32,000 nt of DNA from an uncultured Bacteroidales bacterium (GTDB lineage Bacteria > Bacteroidota > Bacteroidia > Bacteroidales > F082), in the NCBI GenBank assembly GCA_937896505.1, contig CALBNP010000137.1, positions 32,895 to 64,894 of the forward strand, given 5' to 3'. The translations under genes were made by a program, and so were the position numbers. Numbering within the stretch: the stretch's first letter is position 1; every line of letters starts with the position of its first letter. The notes under the pieces are model-generated. The model was not told the origin of the DNA, did no database searches, and was given only the letters and a program-made list of their open reading frames with translations. Of the stretch, positions 636 to 31,270 are shown piece by piece.

Positions 636-2840
<2,205 letters not shown>

Positions 2841-2875
2841 ATATCCTCCTATTGGTATTATCCAAACTTTTGTGT

Positions 2876-2883
2876 TATTTTTG
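2876..2883 (+). promoter_or_regulatory. Candidate Bacteroidota -7 promoter box (TAnnTTTG) upstream of kdsD
   Basis: tatttttg at 2876-2883 matches TAnnTTTG exactly, 108 nt before the kdsD ATG. That distance is long, so this is tentative. Confidence 0.35.
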
Positions 2884-2990
2884 CAATCTCTATTTAAATC
2901 TTTCGTTGTTATAGCAACAATGTTGCCTTTATCATCGAAGACAAAGTTAGGGCATTTAAATCAAACGAAGCAAGAAAAATCTGCAAAAAA

Positions 2991-3956
2991 ATGAAAAAAA
3001 GTGAAGATATTCTTGAAATTGTATCTCAAATCATTGAAAACGAAGCAAATGCAATAATTGGCTTACGGTCTTTGATTGATGAAAATTTCAAGAAAATTAT
3101 TGAAATGATACTTGAAAACAAGGGTAATCTTGTTTTTTCGGGAATCGGAAAGAGCGCAATTATCGCACAAAAGATAGTTGCAACGATGAACTCAACGGGG
3201 ACGACATCGGTTTTCATGCATGCTGCTGACGCTATTCATGGCGATTTGGGTATCGTCCGTGATGGCGATATCGTAGTTATCTTGTCGAAAAGTGGCGAGA
3301 CTCCTGAGATTAAAGTGCTGGTGCCATTGATCAAGTTGCGTGGCAACAAGATTGTTGCCATTGTGGGCAATAGGCAGTCGTTTCTTGCTATGCAAGCTGA
3401 TTGCGTACTCGACGTCACTGTCCCCGATGAAGCCATGCCTAACAGTCTTGCTCCCACCTGCAGCACTACGGCGCAACTTGTCATGGGCGATGCCTTGGCG
3501 CTTACGCTGATGTATTGCCGCGGTTTCTCGATCGATGATTTCGCCAAGTTCCATCCTGGCGGTGCCCTTGGCAAGCAACTATATTTAAAGGTGAAGGACT
3601 TGTATCCTAACAACGAGAAGCCTGAAGTTGCTGTCAATGACAACCTCACTCAAGTGATTATCGAGATGACACGAAAGCGCCTTGGAGCGGCAGTCGTTAC
3701 CGATGGCGAACAGATTCTGGGCATCATCACCGATGGCGACTTGCGGCGTATGCTGATGCGCCACCCCGACATCGAGCATGTGAAGGCTAGCGAAATAATG
3801 ACCCATAACCCTAAAACGATAGATGAAGATGCCCTTGTGGTAAATGCCTTGCATCAGATGCGCTTCAACAGCATTACGCAACTGCCTGTCACGAGCAATG
3901 GACGCTATGTCGGAGTAATTCACCTACATGATATTTTAAGAGAAGGTATTTTTTAG
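2991..3956 (+). CDS. kdsD: KpsF/GutQ-family arabinose-5-phosphate isomerase (SIS domain plus 2 CBS)
   Basis: 321-aa ORF. SIS-domain motif GIGKSAIIAQKIVATMNSTG and a C-terminal tandem CBS pair. It lies next to lptB, which fits an LPS/KDO context. Confidence 0.9.
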   Translation: MKKSEDILEIVSQIIENEANAIIGLRSLIDENFKKIIEMILENKGNLVFSGIGKSAIIAQKIVATMNSTGTTSVFMHAADAIHGDLGIVRDGDIVVILSKSGETPEIKVLVPLIKLRGNKIVAIVGNRQSFLAMQADCVLDVTVPDEAMPNSLAPTCSTTAQLVMGDALALTLMYCRGFSIDDFAKFHPGGALGKQLYLKVKDLYPNNEKPEVAVNDNLTQVIIEMTRKRLGAAVVTDGEQILGIITDGDLRRMLMRHPDIEHVKASEIMTHNPKTIDEDALVVNALHQMRFNSITQLPVTSNGRYVGVIHLHDILREGIF

Positions 3957-18596: not shown

Positions 18597-18770
18597 TCGG
18601 GAAAAGCCTTTAGATACCTTCTTTTGTCGGTATGATATGGGTTGGCACCGAAAGATATCAAAAACCGCAAATGTGATTGAAGTGTTGCTTACTAGTGAAC
18701 CCGCCAACCTTTGCCAGCCACCTATATGCAAAAAAGATGTTTTTTGCTGCAAGTTGTTCGAAATTCTCAT

Positions 18771-18778
18771 TATCTTTG
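18771..18778 (+). promoter_or_regulatory. -7 promoter box of the T9SS cargo gene
   Basis: tatctttg at 18771-18778, 25 nt before the ATG at 18804. It lies inside the ORF-track extension that starts at 18711. Confidence 0.6.
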
Positions 18779-18803
18779 CGGACCAACTTTAAAATTTCAA
18801 GCT

Positions 18804-20045
18804 ATGTCAAGATTCTACATTAAAAATTGGATGGTCGTGGCCATCTGCTTGCTGGCAAACGTAGCCTTGTTTGCCCAAACTCCCGATGTGTATGTCGGAG
18901 GCATCCTCAACAGCGAGGGCGCAATCTGGAAGAATGGAGTCGCCGAGGTGATTCCCAACACCGACCAAGTCTTTTTCATTGTATTTGACGGCGATGACGA
19001 ATATGTCGCCGGACGCACAAAGGAAATGGTTCCCGTAGTTTGGAAAAACGGCGAGGAACTCTATAGGTTTGAAGGGGAATATCAAGACAGGTCCATCTCG
19101 TCGATGGCAGTCCGCGATGGTAACGTGTATGTCACTACTATCGATTTGACCCCAACATGGCAAAACGATGCCGCGGTGTGGGTTAATGGCGTGGCTTCGG
19201 AAGACTATGCCGATGCTGTCGAAATCAACGGCATCTTCCTTGATGGCGATGATGTTTATGTGGCAGGTCGCACCTTCGACCAGGCTGTGATCTGGAAAAA
19301 TGCCGAACCTCTTTACACATACTTTTCTGAAGGCACAGGCCTTTTCTGCGATGTGATTGTCGTTGACGGCGATGTGTATTATCTGGGTGGCGACTTTGGT
19401 GGAGGCGCCGGAAAGACGGCCGCGGTGAAGAGCCAGGACGAAGTTCCTGCCCATCAAGAACACGGTAGGGATTTCGGTATCAAGGCTTGGAAGAACGGCG
19501 AGGAACTTTACTACCTCAGCGAAGAGCTTTATGGAGGCCGCATTGCCGTATCGGACGGGAAGGTCTATGTCTCGGGCCAGGCTGCAAGCGGCATGATCTA
19601 TAGGGCCTTCCTGTGGACTGACGGCGAAGCCACTCCCTTGTCCGACGAATGGAGCGGCACAGGAACCATGTGCATCTACGATGGCGACATTTATGTAACC
19701 GGATTCAAGGGCAATTACCCCGAACTCGACGCCTACATCTGGAAGAACGGCGAGCTTGAAACGATTGCCACTGGAGGCTACAACTACGGCAACTGCATCG
19801 TCGTGGTTGATGGAGAGACGAGCGTTGAAGAAAGCCAAGAGACCTTTGCAGTTTTCCCGAATCCGGCCAACGGCTGCATCTCAATCGAAAGCGTTGAGTT
19901 CAGCGAAGCCGCCCTTTACAACAACATGGGACAACTGGTTCTCACCACCAACGAGAGCAGGATTGACGTCACGGCATTGGCATCGGGACTCTACCTGCTG
20001 AAGCTCGACGGCAAAGCCTCGAAAAACATTCTCATCCAGCATTGA
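18804..20045 (+). CDS. Secreted repeat protein with a T9SS C-terminal sorting domain; seven 'W-K-N-G ... V-Y-V-x-G' repeats (predicted beta-propeller)
   Basis: Start at MSRFYIKNWMVVAICLLANVALFAQ (signal peptide). There are seven spaced W[KVT][ND][GA] motifs, each followed by D(G/D)xVYVxG. The last ~70 aa (FAVFPNPANGCISIES...GLYLLKLDG...ILIQH) match the T9SS type-A CTD pattern. Confidence 0.8.
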   Translation: MSRFYIKNWMVVAICLLANVALFAQTPDVYVGGILNSEGAIWKNGVAEVIPNTDQVFFIVFDGDDEYVAGRTKEMVPVVWKNGEELYRFEGEYQDRSISSMAVRDGNVYVTTIDLTPTWQNDAAVWVNGVASEDYADAVEINGIFLDGDDVYVAGRTFDQAVIWKNAEPLYTYFSEGTGLFCDVIVVDGDVYYLGGDFGGGAGKTAAVKSQDEVPAHQEHGRDFGIKAWKNGEELYYLSEELYGGRIAVSDGKVYVSGQAASGMIYRAFLWTDGEATPLSDEWSGTGTMCIYDGDIYVTGFKGNYPELDAYIWKNGELETIATGGYNYGNCIVVVDGETSVEESQETFAVFPNPANGCISIESVEFSEAALYNNMGQLVLTTNESRIDVTALASGLYLLKLDGKASKNILIQH

Positions 20046-20068: not shown

Positions 20069-20100
20069 GACGGTCGGGAGCGATTCCGACCGTTTTTTTT
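20069..20100 (+). terminator. Intrinsic terminator of the T9SS cargo gene
   Basis: Stem acggtcgg (20070-20077) / ccgaccgt (20086-20093), followed by T8. Confidence 0.85.
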
Positions 20101-20123
20101 GATTTAGGTGAAACAAATAACAA
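20099..20123 (+). repeat. Copy 2 of the perfect 25-bp direct repeat
   Basis: ttgatttaggtgaaacaaataacaa, identical to 18527-18551. This copy has no inverted partner. Confidence 0.9.
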
Positions 20124-20202
20124 GGCAAATATATACTTTTTGGCCCAACTGCATATCCTAATCAAATGATAAAGGGCCTAATTGTATATAGTTGCCGTTT
20201 TT
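20124..20202 (+). other. 73-nt long-range hairpin followed by a T-run (second terminator-like element or small-RNA 3' end)
   Basis: ggcaaatatatac (20124-20136) pairs with gtatatagttgcc (20184-20196), 12/13. An inner ggccc / gggcc helix is present, followed by g-ttttt (20198-20202). Confidence 0.4.
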
Positions 20203-20350
20203 AAACAATTTCTCAATATATTTCATTGTATCTTGCTTTTCCATAAGAATAGGTGAAAAGCATAATACAAAGAGTCATTATAGTTTTTTCTCAATATGGT
20301 TATTTTCCCCAATACGGTTATTTTCCTTTGATATTACAAATGGAAATGCT

Positions 20351-20358
20351 TATCTTTG
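20351..20358 (+). promoter_or_regulatory. -7 promoter box of the V-ATPase operon
   Basis: tatctttg at 20351-20358, 59 nt before the ntpE ATG. Confidence 0.6.
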
Positions 20359-20417
20359 CACGCTAAATTTTTGATAAAGAGAATAGGAAAATATAAATAG
20401 TAAATAATCAACAAGTT

Positions 20418-21029
20418 ATGCAAAATAAGTTGCAAGAATTGACCGACAAGCTTTACAACGAAGGTTTGTCGAAAGGAAAACAGGATGGCGAAGAACTGCT
20501 GCAGAAGGCTAAGGCCGAATCGGAAAGCATCATCGCCCAGGCCAAGGCTGAAGCCGAACGCATCGTAGCTCAGGCTCAGAAAGAAGCCGAAGAGCTGAAA
20601 ACCAAAGTGTCAGCCGATGTGAAGATGGCTGCTACGCAAAGCATCAGCGTCACCAAACAGGAAATGGAAAAGATGATAGTGACCCGCACCGCTGCCGAAG
20701 GCGTGAAAGCCAACATGGGCAATGCGGCCTTTGTCAAGGAACTCATCATGAGCGTAGTGAAGGCTTTCAACCCGCAGAATGCATCGCCCGTCGATTTGAG
20801 TCTCATCTTGCCCGAATCGCTGAAAGCCGAAGTGGAGCCTTTCGTGAAGAACGAAATCGCCAGCCAGTTCAAGGCCGAGGTGAAGGTCGATTATTCAAAG
20901 AAGATGAATGGCGGCTTCAAGGTGGCTCCAAAGAATGGCGGTTATGTGCTGCAATTCACCGATGAGGAGTTCCAGAACCTCGTTGCCAACTACTTGCGTC
21001 CTGCCACCAAGAAAATCCTCTTCGGATAA
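20418..21029 (+). CDS. ntpE: V-type ATPase subunit E (peripheral stalk)
   Basis: 203-aa ORF. The N-terminus is a long charged coiled coil (AKAESESIIAQAKAEAERIVAQAQKEAEELK) and the C-terminus is globular. It is the first gene of the operon. Confidence 0.85.
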   Translation: MQNKLQELTDKLYNEGLSKGKQDGEELLQKAKAESESIIAQAKAEAERIVAQAQKEAEELKTKVSADVKMAATQSISVTKQEMEKMIVTRTAAEGVKANMGNAAFVKELIMSVVKAFNPQNASPVDLSLILPESLKAEVEPFVKNEIASQFKAEVKVDYSKKMNGGFKVAPKNGGYVLQFTDEEFQNLVANYLRPATKKILFG

Positions 21030-21628
21030 TGGATAACTATGTTTATATAGTGGCCGGCTTGCCCGAACTGACTGCCAATTATGATGGCGGTAGTTTCGAC
21101 TATGCCGCCCTCAAGACATCAATCGTTGAACTGCTCTCTGAGAAGGACCAGCAGCTGGTCGAACTCTTGGAGGAAGGCTTCGATGAAAATACGCTCGGAA
21201 AAGGTTTTTACGAAAAGGCTGCCGCGAGCAAGAACGACTTCATCAGGCAGTACTTCGATTTCGATGCCCGTCTGCGCAACATGAAGGTGAACTATTTGGC
21301 CAAGCGCCTCGGCAAAAGAGGTGAGGACTACCAAGTGGAGCTGCCTGAGGCCGACTTCGATGAAGGCAAGCAGATAGAGGAAATCCTCGCCGATGCCGAC
21401 TTCGTGGAGCGCGAGCAGAAAATGGATGAGCTGAAGTGGGAGAAGGCCAGTGACATTGCCCGCATGGACTACTTCAACATGAATGCCATCTTCGCCTTCT
21501 TGGTCAAGGCCAAGACCGTACAGCGTTGGGCCGAACTCGATGAGAAGAAAGGCGAAGAGATGTTCCAGAAACTCGTTTCGGAAGTCAGAGGAACGTTTGA
21601 AGGGGTCAAGTACGACGAAAATAAATAA
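21029..21628 (+). CDS. DUF2764-type V-ATPase-associated protein (candidate functional analogue of subunit C/d)
   Basis: 199-aa ORF. The start overlaps the ntpE stop. The YIVAGLPEL N-terminus and the FDFDARLRN segment resemble DUF2764 as I recall it, and the family occupies this operon slot in Bacteroidota. Confidence 0.7.
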   Translation: MDNYVYIVAGLPELTANYDGGSFDYAALKTSIVELLSEKDQQLVELLEEGFDENTLGKGFYEKAAASKNDFIRQYFDFDARLRNMKVNYLAKRLGKRGEDYQVELPEADFDEGKQIEEILADADFVEREQKMDELKWEKASDIARMDYFNMNAIFAFLVKAKTVQRWAELDEKKGEEMFQKLVSEVRGTFEGVKYDENK

Positions 21629-21755
21629 TGAGATACCACGAAGGATATCGGCGAATTTGGTTTTGGACTTGCGCTGGCCAAGTTCTCATTGAAACCACGA
21701 ATTACACGAATTTACACGAAGGGTTGCTTTGCAATTGATAAACAAACAAAAGAAA

Positions 21756-22136
21756 ATGATATATGCAGAGGAGGCATATAATATAATAGGGGCAGCAATG
21801 GAAGTCCATAGGGTGCTGGGTCCGGGCTTTCTGGAAGCCGTGTATCATGAGGCTCTTGAAGTGGAAATGCGTAAAAGAGACATCCCTTTTGAAACAAAGG
21901 TGGCTTTGCCGATTCAATATAAGGATGTGGTGCTGAAGAAGTGTTATGAGGCTGATTTGTTTTGCTATGACAAGATTATCGTGGAGTTGAAAGCAGTTTC
22001 GGAAGTCACGTCTGAACATGAAGCTCAAATTCTTAATTATCTGAAAGCAACAGGTTGTGAATTGGGTTTGCTGATAAATTTCGGAAGTAAGGAATTGTAC
22101 AGGAAACGTTATTTGAATACAAGATGGACTGTTTAA
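21756..22136 (+). CDS. GxxExxY protein (PD-(D/E)XK nuclease-fold family; TIGR04256 / PDDEXK_3 as I recall)
   Basis: 126 aa from the ATG at 21756 (the ORF track starts at a TTG at 21729). The family-defining motif is present: GPGFLEAVY = G-x-x-E-x-x-Y. A PD-(D/E)XK-like core is also present: EADLFCYDKIIVELK (D...E-x-K). Confidence 0.85.
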   Translation: MIYAEEAYNIIGAAMEVHRVLGPGFLEAVYHEALEVEMRKRDIPFETKVALPIQYKDVVLKKCYEADLFCYDKIIVELKAVSEVTSEHEAQILNYLKATGCELGLLINFGSKELYRKRYLNTRWTV

Positions 22137-22154
22137 AACTACGTATGCACACAA

Positions 22155-22221
22155 TGAAACCACGAATGACACGAATTTACACGAATGTCTATTTCGTGGG
22201 ATTTCGCGTGAATTCGTGGTT
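22155..22221. repeat. Imperfect palindrome at the right end of the cassette
   Basis: aaccacgaatgacacgaatttacacgaa / ttcgtgggatttcgcgtgaattcgtggtt, with a 7-nt centre (tgtctat). Each arm is made of three 9-nt 'cacgaat' units. Confidence 0.8.
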
Positions 22222-22282
22222 CCGAGAAAAGGATTTGCGAAGCAAATCATAAACGAAGAAAATATAATTAGATGTTTTAAAT

Positions 22283-24031
22283 ATGAAAACAACAGGTAAA
22301 GTTACAGGTATCATTGCCAACTTGGTCACCGTTCAGGTGGACGGCCCTGTCGCTCAGAATGAGATCTGCTTCATCGACCTTGACGGTGTCAAGCTGATGG
22401 CAGAAGTCATTAAGGTGAACGGCAACAAGGCCTCCGTGCAGGTGTATGAAAGCACCCGCGGCCTGAAAATCGGCAACCCGGTGGAATTTCAGGGTTACAT
22501 GCTTGAAGTGACCTTGGGACCTGGTTTGCTATCAAGCAATTTCGACGGCTTGCAGAACAATCTCGCCACTATGACGGATGTGTTCCTCAAGAGAGGCGAA
22601 TACACCAAGCCGCTCGATGAAAACAAGAAATGGGATTTCACTCCGCTTGCCAAGGCTGGTCAGCAGGTCGTGGCCGCCGACTGGCTGGGCGAGGTGAAAG
22701 AAGGCTGGCTGCCTCACAAAATCATGGTGCCGTTCTCGTTTGAAGGGACCTACACCGTGAAATCGGTGGCTGCCGCCGGACAATACAAGATTACCGATAC
22801 CATAGCCGTCCTCACCAATGCCGAGGGCGAAGAGGTAAAGGTTACGATGATGCAGAAATGGCCTGTCAAGGTGGCCGTGGGCGGTTACGTCGAAAAGCCG
22901 CGTCCGTTCAAGGTCATGGAGACCGGCGTGCGCTGCATCGACACCTTGAACCCGATTGCCGAAGGCGGCACGGGCTTTATCCCTGGTCCTTTCGGCTGTG
23001 GCAAGACCGTCTTGCAGCACGCTTTGGCCGAACAGGCCGATGCCGATGTCATCATCATGGCGGCTTGCGGTGAACGTGCTAACGAGGTCGTGGAAATCTT
23101 CACCGAGTTCCCTGAACTGAAAGACAAGCACACGGGCCGTAGCCTGATGGAACGTACCATCATCATCTGCAACACATCCAACATGCCTGTCGCCGCCCGT
23201 GAGGCTTCCGTCTATACGGCCATGACCTTGGGCGAATATTACCGCGCCATGGGCATGAAGGTGCTGCTGCTGGCCGACTCCACTTCGCGCTGGGCTCAGG
23301 CTTTGCGTGAGATGAGTAACCGTTTGGAAGAATTGCCGGGTCAGGATGGTTTCCCAGTTGACCTTTCGGCTATCATTTCTTCCTTCTACGCCCGCGCCGG
23401 TTATGTGAAACTGAACAATGGTGCCACGGGTTCCATCACCTTCATCGGTACGGTTTCGCCTGCTGGCGGTAACCTGAAGGAGCCTGTCACCGAATCGACA
23501 AAGAAGGCTGCACGTTGTTTCTATGGCCTCTCGCAGAACCGCGCTGATAAGAAGCGTTATCCTGCCGTTGACCCTGTCGATTCCTATTCAAAGTATCTTG
23601 AATATCCTGAAATCATTGAATATCTGGATAATAAGATCGAAAAAGGTTGGGTTGACAAGGTAACCAAGATGAAATATATCATCCGCAGAGGTAAGGATGC
23701 TTACGAACAAATCAACATCCTGGGTGACGACGGCGTGCCGATGTCGTATCACGAGCAGTATTGGAAGTCGGAATTGCTTGACTTCGTCATATTGCAGCAG
23801 GATGCTTTCGATGAAATCGATGCTTCGACGCCTCTCGACCGTCAGAAGTTCATGCTCGACCTGCTCCTCGAAGTCTGCGACCGCTCGTTCAAGTTCAATG
23901 ATTTTGAAGAATGTACAACCTACTTCAAGGAGTTGATCAACATTTGCAAGCAGATGAACTATTCGGAGTATCAGTCGGAACAATTCAATAAATATCTCAA
24001 TCAGTTTAAGGAGGAATTGAAACATGAGTGA
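22283..24031 (+). CDS. ntpA: V-type ATPase catalytic subunit A
   Basis: 582-aa ORF. Walker A GPFGCGKTV and the A-subunit-specific non-homologous insert region are present. The length is normal, so there is no intein. Confidence 0.95.
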   Translation: MKTTGKVTGIIANLVTVQVDGPVAQNEICFIDLDGVKLMAEVIKVNGNKASVQVYESTRGLKIGNPVEFQGYMLEVTLGPGLLSSNFDGLQNNLATMTDVFLKRGEYTKPLDENKKWDFTPLAKAGQQVVAADWLGEVKEGWLPHKIMVPFSFEGTYTVKSVAAAGQYKITDTIAVLTNAEGEEVKVTMMQKWPVKVAVGGYVEKPRPFKVMETGVRCIDTLNPIAEGGTGFIPGPFGCGKTVLQHALAEQADADVIIMAACGERANEVVEIFTEFPELKDKHTGRSLMERTIIICNTSNMPVAAREASVYTAMTLGEYYRAMGMKVLLLADSTSRWAQALREMSNRLEELPGQDGFPVDLSAIISSFYARAGYVKLNNGATGSITFIGTVSPAGGNLKEPVTESTKKAARCFYGLSQNRADKKRYPAVDPVDSYSKYLEYPEIIEYLDNKIEKGWVDKVTKMKYIIRRGKDAYEQINILGDDGVPMSYHEQYWKSELLDFVILQQDAFDEIDASTPLDRQKFMLDLLLEVCDRSFKFNDFEECTTYFKELINICKQMNYSEYQSEQFNKYLNQFKEELKHE

Positions 24032-31195: not shown

Positions 31196-31270
31196 TGCGG
31201 GGTAGAGCAGAGGCAGCTCGTCGGGCTCATAACCCGGAGGTCGGAGGTTCGAATCCTCCCCCCGCTACCA
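31196..31270 (+). tRNA. Initiator tRNA-Met (anticodon CAT), CCA encoded
   Basis: The cloverleaf was folded by hand. Acceptor tgcgggg / ccccgct, D-stem agagc / gctcg with A11:U24, anticodon loop ctCATaa, three consecutive G:C pairs in the anticodon stem (ggg / ccc), T-arm ggagg-ttcgaat-cctcc, non-Watson-Crick 1:72 (U:U), discriminator A plus CCA. Confidence 0.9.

Follow-up and report, generated by a model that had tools for sequence, protein, structure and literature searches.

The window analysed here is a stretch of 32,000 nucleotides (nt) from an uncultured Bacteroidales bacterium (contig CALBNP010000137.1), and this report concerns the intercistronic spacer that lies within its V-ATPase operon, between the DUF2764 gene and ntpA. 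The spacer appears to hold a mini-cassette, about 610 bp long, that has been inserted there and has no promoter of its own. It is bounded by terminal inverted repeats (TIRs) of about 70 nt, each composed of a hairpin and three 9-10-nt CACGAAT units, and carries a gene of the GxxExxY family as cargo. In this Bacteroidales lineage the junction seems to have repeatedly gained and lost palindromic elements and gene modules. For these two statements taken jointly our estimate is a probability of roughly 0.6. The observations that carry them are the insertion polymorphism of the site among relatives, the anatomy of the TIRs, the family and fold of the protein, the purifying selection acting on its gene, the recurrence of the same layout across operons and phyla, and a mosaic similarity to one related contig that would agree with transfer of the cassette and its flanks between lineages.

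The insert and its flanks consist of the following features, in the numbering of the window.

21029..21628, + strand: DUF2764 gene of the V-ATPase operon, upstream flank (PF10962, E 5e-30)
21653..21720, + strand: left TIR, with a small hairpin, a spacer and three tandem units (TIR alignment)
21665-21684: hairpin of the left TIR, GGACTTGCGC..GCGCAAGTT
21691-21720: tandem units of the left TIR, ACCACGAAT / TACACGAAT / TTACACGAA
21756..22136, + strand: GxxExxY gene, 126 amino acids, ATG at 21756 (TIGR04256 and PF13366)
22152..22186, + strand: internal second copy of the arm, abutting the right arm; a direct repeat of 21687-21720
22191..22262, + strand: right TIR, with the inverted arm ATTTCGTGGGATTTCGCGTGAATTCGTGGTT (about 22191-22224), a spacer and a small hairpin (inverted-repeat pairs I2, I3, I5 and I9)
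22232-22248: hairpin of the right TIR, GATTTGC-GAA-GCAAATC
22283..24031, + strand: ntpA, subunit A of the V-type ATPase, downstream flank (open reading frame; homologues annotated as V-type ATP synthase subunit A)

Sequence reading and the listing of open reading frames (ORFs) confirm the coordinates of the spacer in the original prediction: 654 nt (21629-22282), from the end of DUF2764 at 21628 to the start of ntpA at 22283. The direct repeat described there as flanking the gene is present as well, but measures 34 nt and not 31 (21687-21720 and 22152-22185, 94% identity). A 27-nt core pattern of this repeat occurs twice in the window, against zero occurrences expected from shuffled sequence, and no further copies of the arm were found elsewhere in the window. 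The downstream direct copy pairs with the inverted arm at about 22191-22224 to form a local palindrome which, as RNA, has a folding energy of -34.6 kcal/mol (z = -4.4); none of 200 shuffles folds equally well. Sequence shuffles and folding shuffles together rule out a chance origin of the repeat.

The palindrome downstream of the gene had also been described correctly as to its presence, but the element to which it belongs is larger than a 31-mer with 28-bp arms. When the left flank is aligned to the reverse-complemented right flank, the inverted repeat is seen to extend for about 70 nt per side rather than 28 nt, because a small hairpin sits distal to each arm. The two TIRs match at 47 of 62 aligned positions, and each displays the three-unit pattern AACCACGAAT, xCACGAAxT, xxCACGAA. 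A six-arm alignment sets the left TIR beside the reverse complement of 22190-22262 and four arms of the metagenomic contig L001 (see below); conservation is seen in the stem of the hairpin, in the AACCACGAA terminus and in both CACGAA units. The element thus delimited extends over approximately 21653-22262, in the order arm-gene-arm-inverted-arm, with an A-rich leader in front of the gene. The remainder of the spacer, about 24 nt before the element and about 20 nt after it, sums to a length close to that of empty spacers in relatives. The GC content of the segment is 0.35-0.44, compared with 0.50-0.60 in the flanking genes, a drop of about 0.12-0.15.

Box and terminator scans bore out the claim that the segment has no TAnnTTTG box and no T-run terminator: neither such a box nor a terminator-like site on the + strand is present within 21629-22282. 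The nearest TAnnTTTG-type box, TATCTTTG, is at 20351, upstream of subunit E. It lies in a very AT-rich stretch (20100-20400, GC 0.26-0.32) that precedes subunit E and is likely to be the promoter region of the operon. Further upstream, the ORF at 18711-20045 has a C-terminal tail that resembles, by eye only, a type IX secretion system sorting domain.

The ORF predicted in the spacer, with its GFLEAVY motif and its D...ExK core ADLFCYDKIIVELK, is present in the translation, and a hidden Markov model (HMM) check places the product in the GxxExxY family with scores far over the cutoffs. TIGR04256 (GxxExxY) gives 152.4 bits against a cutoff of 35 (E 6e-45, profile positions 2-115 of 116), and PF13366 (PDDEXK_3) gives 144.6 bits against a cutoff of 22 (E 2e-42). 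The family motif reads G24-F-L-E27-A-V-Y30, and the length of 126 amino acids is within the typical family range of about 120-140. Across an alignment of 49 homologues the residues G24, E27, Y30, D67, E77, K79, Q91 and Y95 are invariant; E27, D67, E77-K79 and Q91-Y95 constitute the E / D / ExK / QxxxY set of RecB-family nucleases, in which D67, E77, K79, Q91 and Y95 correspond to motifs II-IV.

An AlphaFold2 model computed with the 49 homologues (pLDDT 94.1, pTM 0.87) has secondary structure elements in the order H-H-E-E-E-H-E-E and adopts the restriction-endonuclease-like alpha/beta fold. The top Foldseek match in the PDB is the Cas4 protein SSO0001 (4ic1; E 2.5e-4, TMq 0.60), with further matches to MGME1, lambda exonuclease, RecE and AdnAB nuclease domains. 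The GxxExxY protein is, as predicted from this model, a minimal RecB/Cas4-type PD-(D/E)XK nuclease with a complete set of catalytic motifs. It shares with Cas4 (SSO0001, 4ic1) and with RecB-family domains the best-matching fold and the E, D, ExK and QxxxY motifs. It is not Cas4 proper, however, because it has no Fe-S cysteine cluster: the four-cysteine module is missing and only C70 is invariant. It is also shorter, at about 126 amino acids compared with about 200, and its gene stands among V-ATPase genes and not in a CRISPR-cas locus.

The GxxExxY gene of the window and its counterpart in L001 have a dN/dS of 0.09, indicating strong purifying selection. The family is very large: clustered at 50% identity, it counts 18,713 representatives (E <=1e-3). 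Some members (P0241, P0243, P0245 and others) are 250-295 amino acids long with two matched stretches, and are tandem two-domain GxxExxY proteins. A sequence search of the PDB with the window protein gave no match. None was obtained in PHROGs either, and PADLOC returned only a 40-residue match (E 0.0015), so that no known defence family was matched. Homologues were absent from 50,697 phage records and were found at only 2 loci among IMG/VR contigs; a viral origin is therefore unlikely. In the portions of the literature available to us, a survey table entry among them, no function is given for GxxExxY / PDDEXK_3, and those portions that deal with GxxExxY, PDDEXK_3, IVP-type cassettes or tandem-unit palindromes do not describe this type of element.

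A metagenome scan with the DUF2764 protein retrieved 80 related loci from rumen and gut (72-86% amino acid identity), with measurable spacers in 71. Spacers of -4 to 31 nt, found at 24 of the 71 junctions, were taken as empty (for example L134 3094-3114). At 29 junctions the spacer is 51-229 nt long and holds several unrelated small palindromic elements, and at the remaining 18 it is 849-2299 nt long and holds other genes (for example L163 3106-4691 and L174 3094-3944). A GxxExxY gene was found at none of the 71. The original prediction of a mobile cassette lodged in an intercistronic spacer is supported by these empty sites and by the unrelated inserts at the others. The junction comparison, which had been set beforehand as the test that could refute insertion, came out in favour of it, the cassette being present in one other contig only. 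The junction is an insertion hot spot, since relatives show empty sites, palindromes or other gene modules at this point, with the GxxExxY cassette as one occupant among several alternatives.

The alternative occupants are diverse. A gene-less element built of ACGAAT units is present at the junction in L173 and L175, and also in L152, whose 1716-nt spacer belongs to the gene-bearing size group. The commonest large insert is a two-gene module encoding a protein of about 225-235 amino acids, which has only a weak Sigma70_r4_2 match, and a DUF3307 membrane protein of about 240 amino acids; it is carried by L163 (3106-4691), L131, L148, L152, L157, L176, L180, L187, L202, L209 and L232 (2074-3467). 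This module is preceded by 2-4 tandem hairpin repeats of about 32 nt (GTAAAAAAGCTTATATTTGCGAATTATAAGT), reminiscent of a repeated operator or RNA element. Lipoprotein genes are another large cargo. Among the smaller occupants, a long hairpin ATTGCTTCG...CGTCATTGCGAGGAACGAAGCAAT is seen in L146, L160, L165/L166 and L199/L203. The L150/L168 junction carries a GCTTCTGGC-unit tandem palindrome (CTGGC units, GCCAG when inverted), a second example of the tandem-unit type with a different unit. The spacer at L135 2175-2313 contains three short hairpins with GGATTTGCAATCC-like loops resembling an anticodon arm.

Nowhere in the region is divergence greater than in the 3' tail of DUF2764 (46-72% nucleotide identity among relatives); the hypervariable junctions are those of L130-L209 and L232-L235. 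The closest NtpA relatives (92% amino acid identity) show one of two states at the junction, the DUF3307 module or a spacer of 74 nt, and their named neighbours are Bacteroidales such as Candidatus Limimorpha.

The only other carrier of the cassette that we found, L001, is a 1252-nt ENA metagenomic contig whose GxxExxY protein is 96% identical to that of the window. Nucleotide identities to the window along this contig, and in other relatives, are as follows.

DUF2764, window positions 21322-21521: L001 75.5%; other relatives up to 91% (L134, an empty site)
DUF2764, last 107 nt: L001 90.7%; 55 other relatives <=72%
Cassette: L001 about 95%; not present in other relatives
ntpA, first 120 nt: L001 98.3%; other relatives <=91.7%

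The similarity of the window to L001 is therefore mosaic: the two sequences diverge upstream, and over a stretch that starts about 100 nt ahead of the cassette and reaches into ntpA they are almost the same. Such a pattern suggests that the cassette may have moved between lineages together with its immediate flanks, by homologous recombination. In L001 the first module is directly followed by a second which is gene-less and has a 63-nt loop between ends of the same left and right types; because of this extra module, the number of modules differs between close relatives.

GxxExxY genes were also located at other sites. The survey comprised 19 distinct sites, 3 from the arm scan described below and 16 retrieved with protein queries or from plasmid records and viral contigs. 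Inverted tandem-unit arms are present on both sides at 11 of the 19; at 5 the arm is on one side only or the copies are direct, and 3 have no arms. Among the 16 sites that were not retrieved through the arm pattern, 13 have tandem-unit arms of the CRCRRAK type directly at the ends of the gene, in many cases an exact inverted pair that encloses nothing but the GxxExxY gene, so that the link between gene and arms goes beyond incidental proximity. The units share the CRCRRAK core and occur as CACGAAT, CACAGAT, CACGGAT, CACAGAG, CGCAGAT, CGCGAAT and ACGCGAAG. Two layouts are seen: arm-gene-inverted-arm at ychF|NUDIX, at radA|FAD of B. finegoldii, at ade|manC of Bernardetia and in Treponema; and arm-gene-arm-inverted-arm in the window, in L001, at wzm|wzt (L212) and at metG|hemE (L228). 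Further examples of such junctions are fabD|fabG (Sphingomonas) and pfkB|MTase. At every site with called or annotated neighbours, the GxxExxY gene is tightly packed and co-oriented with both of them.

The ychF|NUDIX site is informative as to the age of such an association. The GxxExxY gene there has a dN/dS of about 0.03, with dN of 0.06-0.14 and dS saturated as in ychF itself; since synonymous sites are saturated to that level, the cassette at this site is old and has been kept vertically. The arm units differ between species, being ACAGAT in both arms or ACGGAT on the left and ACGAAT on the right (L002/L216 vs L229-L231). All units of one arm have changed together, and at one position an A-T to G-C change is found on both sides (L002 vs L229). 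These differences indicate that the arms may have undergone concerted evolution or that the cassette was replaced by another variant. Two hairpins are conserved at the site, GGACGC-AA-GCGTCC before the start codon and GCAGC-TTTA-GCTGC over the stop codon.

The arm-gene-arm-inverted-arm layout is not confined to one protein family. Genes of the 23S_rRNA_IVP type, encoding four-helix bundles, have the same layout in L212 (8250-9050) and L236 (80-640), with the arm units CTCGAAG/CTGGAAG and CCTCAAAC/CCTCCAAC. Comparison of these sequences suggests that one cassette architecture may be common to at least two unrelated families of small proteins.

A search for further copies of the arms, including copies around other GxxExxY genes, had been proposed as a check, and arms of the same type were found in many phyla. 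A scan for the pattern CCACGAA-N(2-5)-CACGAA-N(3-5)-CACGAA, with one genome per species, gave at least 120 loci. These belong to Verrucomicrobiota, Acidobacteriota, Chloroflexota, Planctomycetota, Proteobacteria, Bacteroidota, Heliobacteria and one metagenome-assembled genome (MAG) of Thermoplasmata. A typical palindrome consists of three units, a loop of mostly 9-200 nt and three inverted units, and the spacers between units are equal in the two arms of one element and different between elements. Among the matches listed, the palindromes stand between co-directional genes in 17 cases, convergent genes in 11 and divergent genes in 3, and many of them lie no more than 20 nt from a stop codon. 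Related unit types (CACTAAT, CACAGAT and CACGGAT) co-occur with them. Arm pairs more than 700 nt apart were considered as possible cargo cassettes and rejected, as they proved to be separate arms around genes for 3-hydroxyacyl-CoA dehydrogenase, rhomboid and heparinase. In L018 and L111 a GxxExxY gene lies between two arms, and the GxxExxY gene of L105 forms part of a cassette array. That array (765-3400) comprises a ParD/ParE-like pair, a DUF4160 + DUF2442 pair, a CCDC90-like coiled-coil protein and GxxExxY, with arms of CACGAAT/CACTAAT units between the cassettes; it resembles an integron array, with no integrase visible in the 8-kb locus.

If the spacer does hold an inserted cassette, its behaviour may be pictured as follows. 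Transcripts started at the operon promoter (about 20351) would read through into the gene, which would be translated from the polycistronic mRNA. The strong hairpins are probably RNA 3'-end or processing structures, and may be tolerated because of their position between cistrons. Recombination between the direct copies of the arm would remove the gene and leave a gene-less palindrome, of the kind seen in the second module of L001 and in the many CACGAA palindromes that have no gene. The nuclease would serve the retention or the spread of the element, possibly by a homing-like route in which a cut at or near the arms, or at empty sites, is followed by recombinational repair from an occupied copy.

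Several points weigh against the reading as an inserted, nuclease-bearing cassette. The mosaic similarity comes from a single 1252-nt metagenomic contig, possibly chimeric, in which no right breakpoint is visible. The closest DUF2764 relatives are at most 86% identical in amino acid sequence, and no target-site duplication is defined, because no empty allele is close enough to map the junction. We infer the nuclease activity, its substrate and any link with the arms. The long vertical retention of the ychF-site gene under strong purifying selection agrees equally with a gene that benefits the host and with a selfish one. Finally, the arms do flank GxxExxY genes, but they are not private to them. 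A GxxExxY gene is near only 3 of the 120 arm loci among the matches listed, which led us to reject a specificity of CACGAA arms for these genes. Arms also flank other cargo, namely ParDE, DUF4160/DUF2442 and, with other units, a 23S_rRNA_IVP-type gene. Because the arms are mostly gene-less and flank other cargo, the GxxExxY gene is perhaps a passenger and not the driver.

The principal rival explanation takes up this last point. It holds that the gene is a host-useful passenger: a nuclease with a housekeeping or defensive task (DNA repair, end processing or action against invaders), co-expressed in strong operons, next to palindromes that are ordinary repeats of the repetitive extragenic palindromic (REP) kind, marking recombination-prone spacers or acting as mRNA hairpins with no specific link to the protein. 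The selection on the ychF|NUDIX gene and its long vertical retention agree with this, as do the overwhelmingly gene-less arms, standing around ordinary genes such as those for 3-hydroxyacyl-CoA dehydrogenase and rhomboid, and the unrelated cargo within the same arms. It is harder to reconcile with the patchy presence of the gene at the V-ATPase junction, where near relatives have different cargo, with the mosaic similarity to L001, with the lack of a match to any known defence family, and with the CRCRRAK arms at the gene ends of 13 of the 16 sites that were not found through arms. On balance we consider the passenger explanation unlikely, though it is the best placed of the rivals.

A second rival moves the element to the level of RNA, by analogy with the intervening sequences (IVSs) of 23S rRNA. 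The arms would pair in the transcript, RNase III would cut the stem, and the V-ATPase mRNA would be split, setting the ratio of E/DUF2764 to A/B/D/I/K. When the whole spacer is folded at minimum energy, its left and right arms do pair and enclose the ORF; the local hairpin, too, is highly stable. IVS-type four-helix-bundle genes share the arm layout in L212 and L236, and the A-T to G-C change on both sides at the ychF site (L002 vs L229) also counts in favour. The IVS of Coxiella burnetii 23S rRNA, which bears an ORF (S23p / 23S_rRNA_IVP four-helix bundle) and is excised by RNase III (PMC4990558), offers a precedent. However, the arm mismatches comprise 20 G.U and 24 A.C on the sense strand, with no excess of the former, a count that is uninformative in part because the local alignments overran the arms; gene-less palindromes also stand between convergent genes; and the spacer matches no Rfam family at gathering scores or even at E <=1. 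The sole Rfam match in the whole window is a tRNA gene at 31196-31267, hence no rRNA is present in it. Such an RNA element would also leave the insertion polymorphism and the conserved nuclease unexplained, and we regard it as improbable.

Least probable of all is an integron-like system with a recombinase encoded elsewhere, in which recombination would take place at the palindromes, a circle of gene plus arm would enter a resident palindrome and GxxExxY would be one of many cargoes. The arm-gene-arm-inverted-arm order (window, L001, L212 and L228) would be the expected product if such a circle had integrated at a single site, the left arm of the resident palindrome, and in L105 and L212 small cassettes stand in arrays with arms between them (toxin-antitoxin pairs, DUF6036, IVP and GxxExxY), but no integrase was noticed beside the loci examined, in a survey that included no search aimed at integrases, the arm ends GAAACCACG...CGTGGTTCC are, by eye only, unlike the attC R''/R' consensus RYYYAAC/GTTRRRY, the cassettes are dispersed singly in operons and not arrayed at one platform, and many of them are simple arm-gene-inverted-arm units.

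Within the reading that we prefer, an inserted cassette at a hot spot, a more far-reaching proposal can be made by analogy with the REP system and its REP-associated tyrosine transposases (RAYTs). GxxExxY would be the enzyme of the cross-phylum class of tandem-unit palindromes, a PD-(D/E)XK analogue of the partner in REP/RAYT. The CRCRRAK units, about one helical turn apart, would be candidate binding sites of the nuclease; gene-bearing cassettes would be autonomous, gene-less palindromes at gene 3' ends would be non-autonomous derivatives or excision footprints, and nuclease-provoked recombination would carry the elements into the junctions of conserved operons. We put this forward tentatively, as a possibility against which the odds at present lie.

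Comparison with known systems shows that the cassette departs from each of its closest analogues. As in REP/REPIN-RAYT systems, short palindromes are dispersed at gene 3' ends, and a small enzyme gene is flanked by inverted cognate repeats. The enzyme gene in both is under purifying selection, with vertical inheritance possible, and gene-less copies far outnumber gene-bearing ones. The cassette enzyme, however, is of the PD-(D/E)XK type and not an HUH Y1 (IS200/IS605-like) transposase, and its repeats are tandem 9-10-nt CRCRRAK units beginning with AACCACGAA, with no GTAG/CGTC tag. The core of the unit is also met with in different phyla, while REP sequences are confined to particular lineages.

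With the 23S rRNA IVS the cassette shares a size of about 0.4-0.6 kb, a single small ORF within inverted repeats, the possibility of a long stem, and a horizontally acquired position in a highly expressed, co-transcribed unit. It differs in being located in an mRNA intercistronic spacer and not in rRNA, and in belonging to a different cargo family.

Free-standing homing endonuclease genes, such as the phage seg and mob genes, and PD-(D/E)XK enzymes such as I-Ssp6803I, do not need terminal repeats. Like them, the cassette is a small nuclease gene wedged between conserved co-oriented genes and present or absent in relatives, and its flanks appear to have been co-transferred, to judge by the mosaic with the one contig. 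Unlike them, it has terminal repeats, and its homologues number 0 in the 50,697 phage records. Miniature inverted-repeat transposable elements (MITEs) and small TIR transposons resemble it in the TIRs of about 70 nt, the intergenic site and the gene-less derivatives with the same ends (second module of L001); they differ in that the cassette has no recognised transposase domain and its TIRs are internally tandem-repetitive.

The locus and its relatives give the GxxExxY family a concrete genomic behaviour, that of a co-oriented, promoter-less mini-cassette in conserved operons (V-ATPase, fab, O-antigen ABC transporter and ychF). If the link between the nuclease and the repeats is true, it would constitute a second, mechanistically different partnership of the REP/RAYT kind, and would account for a class of intergenic palindromes that ranges from Bacteroidota to Acidobacteriota and one archaeal MAG. 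On a conservative reading too, the DUF2764|ntpA junction is a natural insertion hot spot in an operon of essential type, and it offers a useful system in which to ask how selfish inserts and strong hairpins between cistrons are tolerated by operons.

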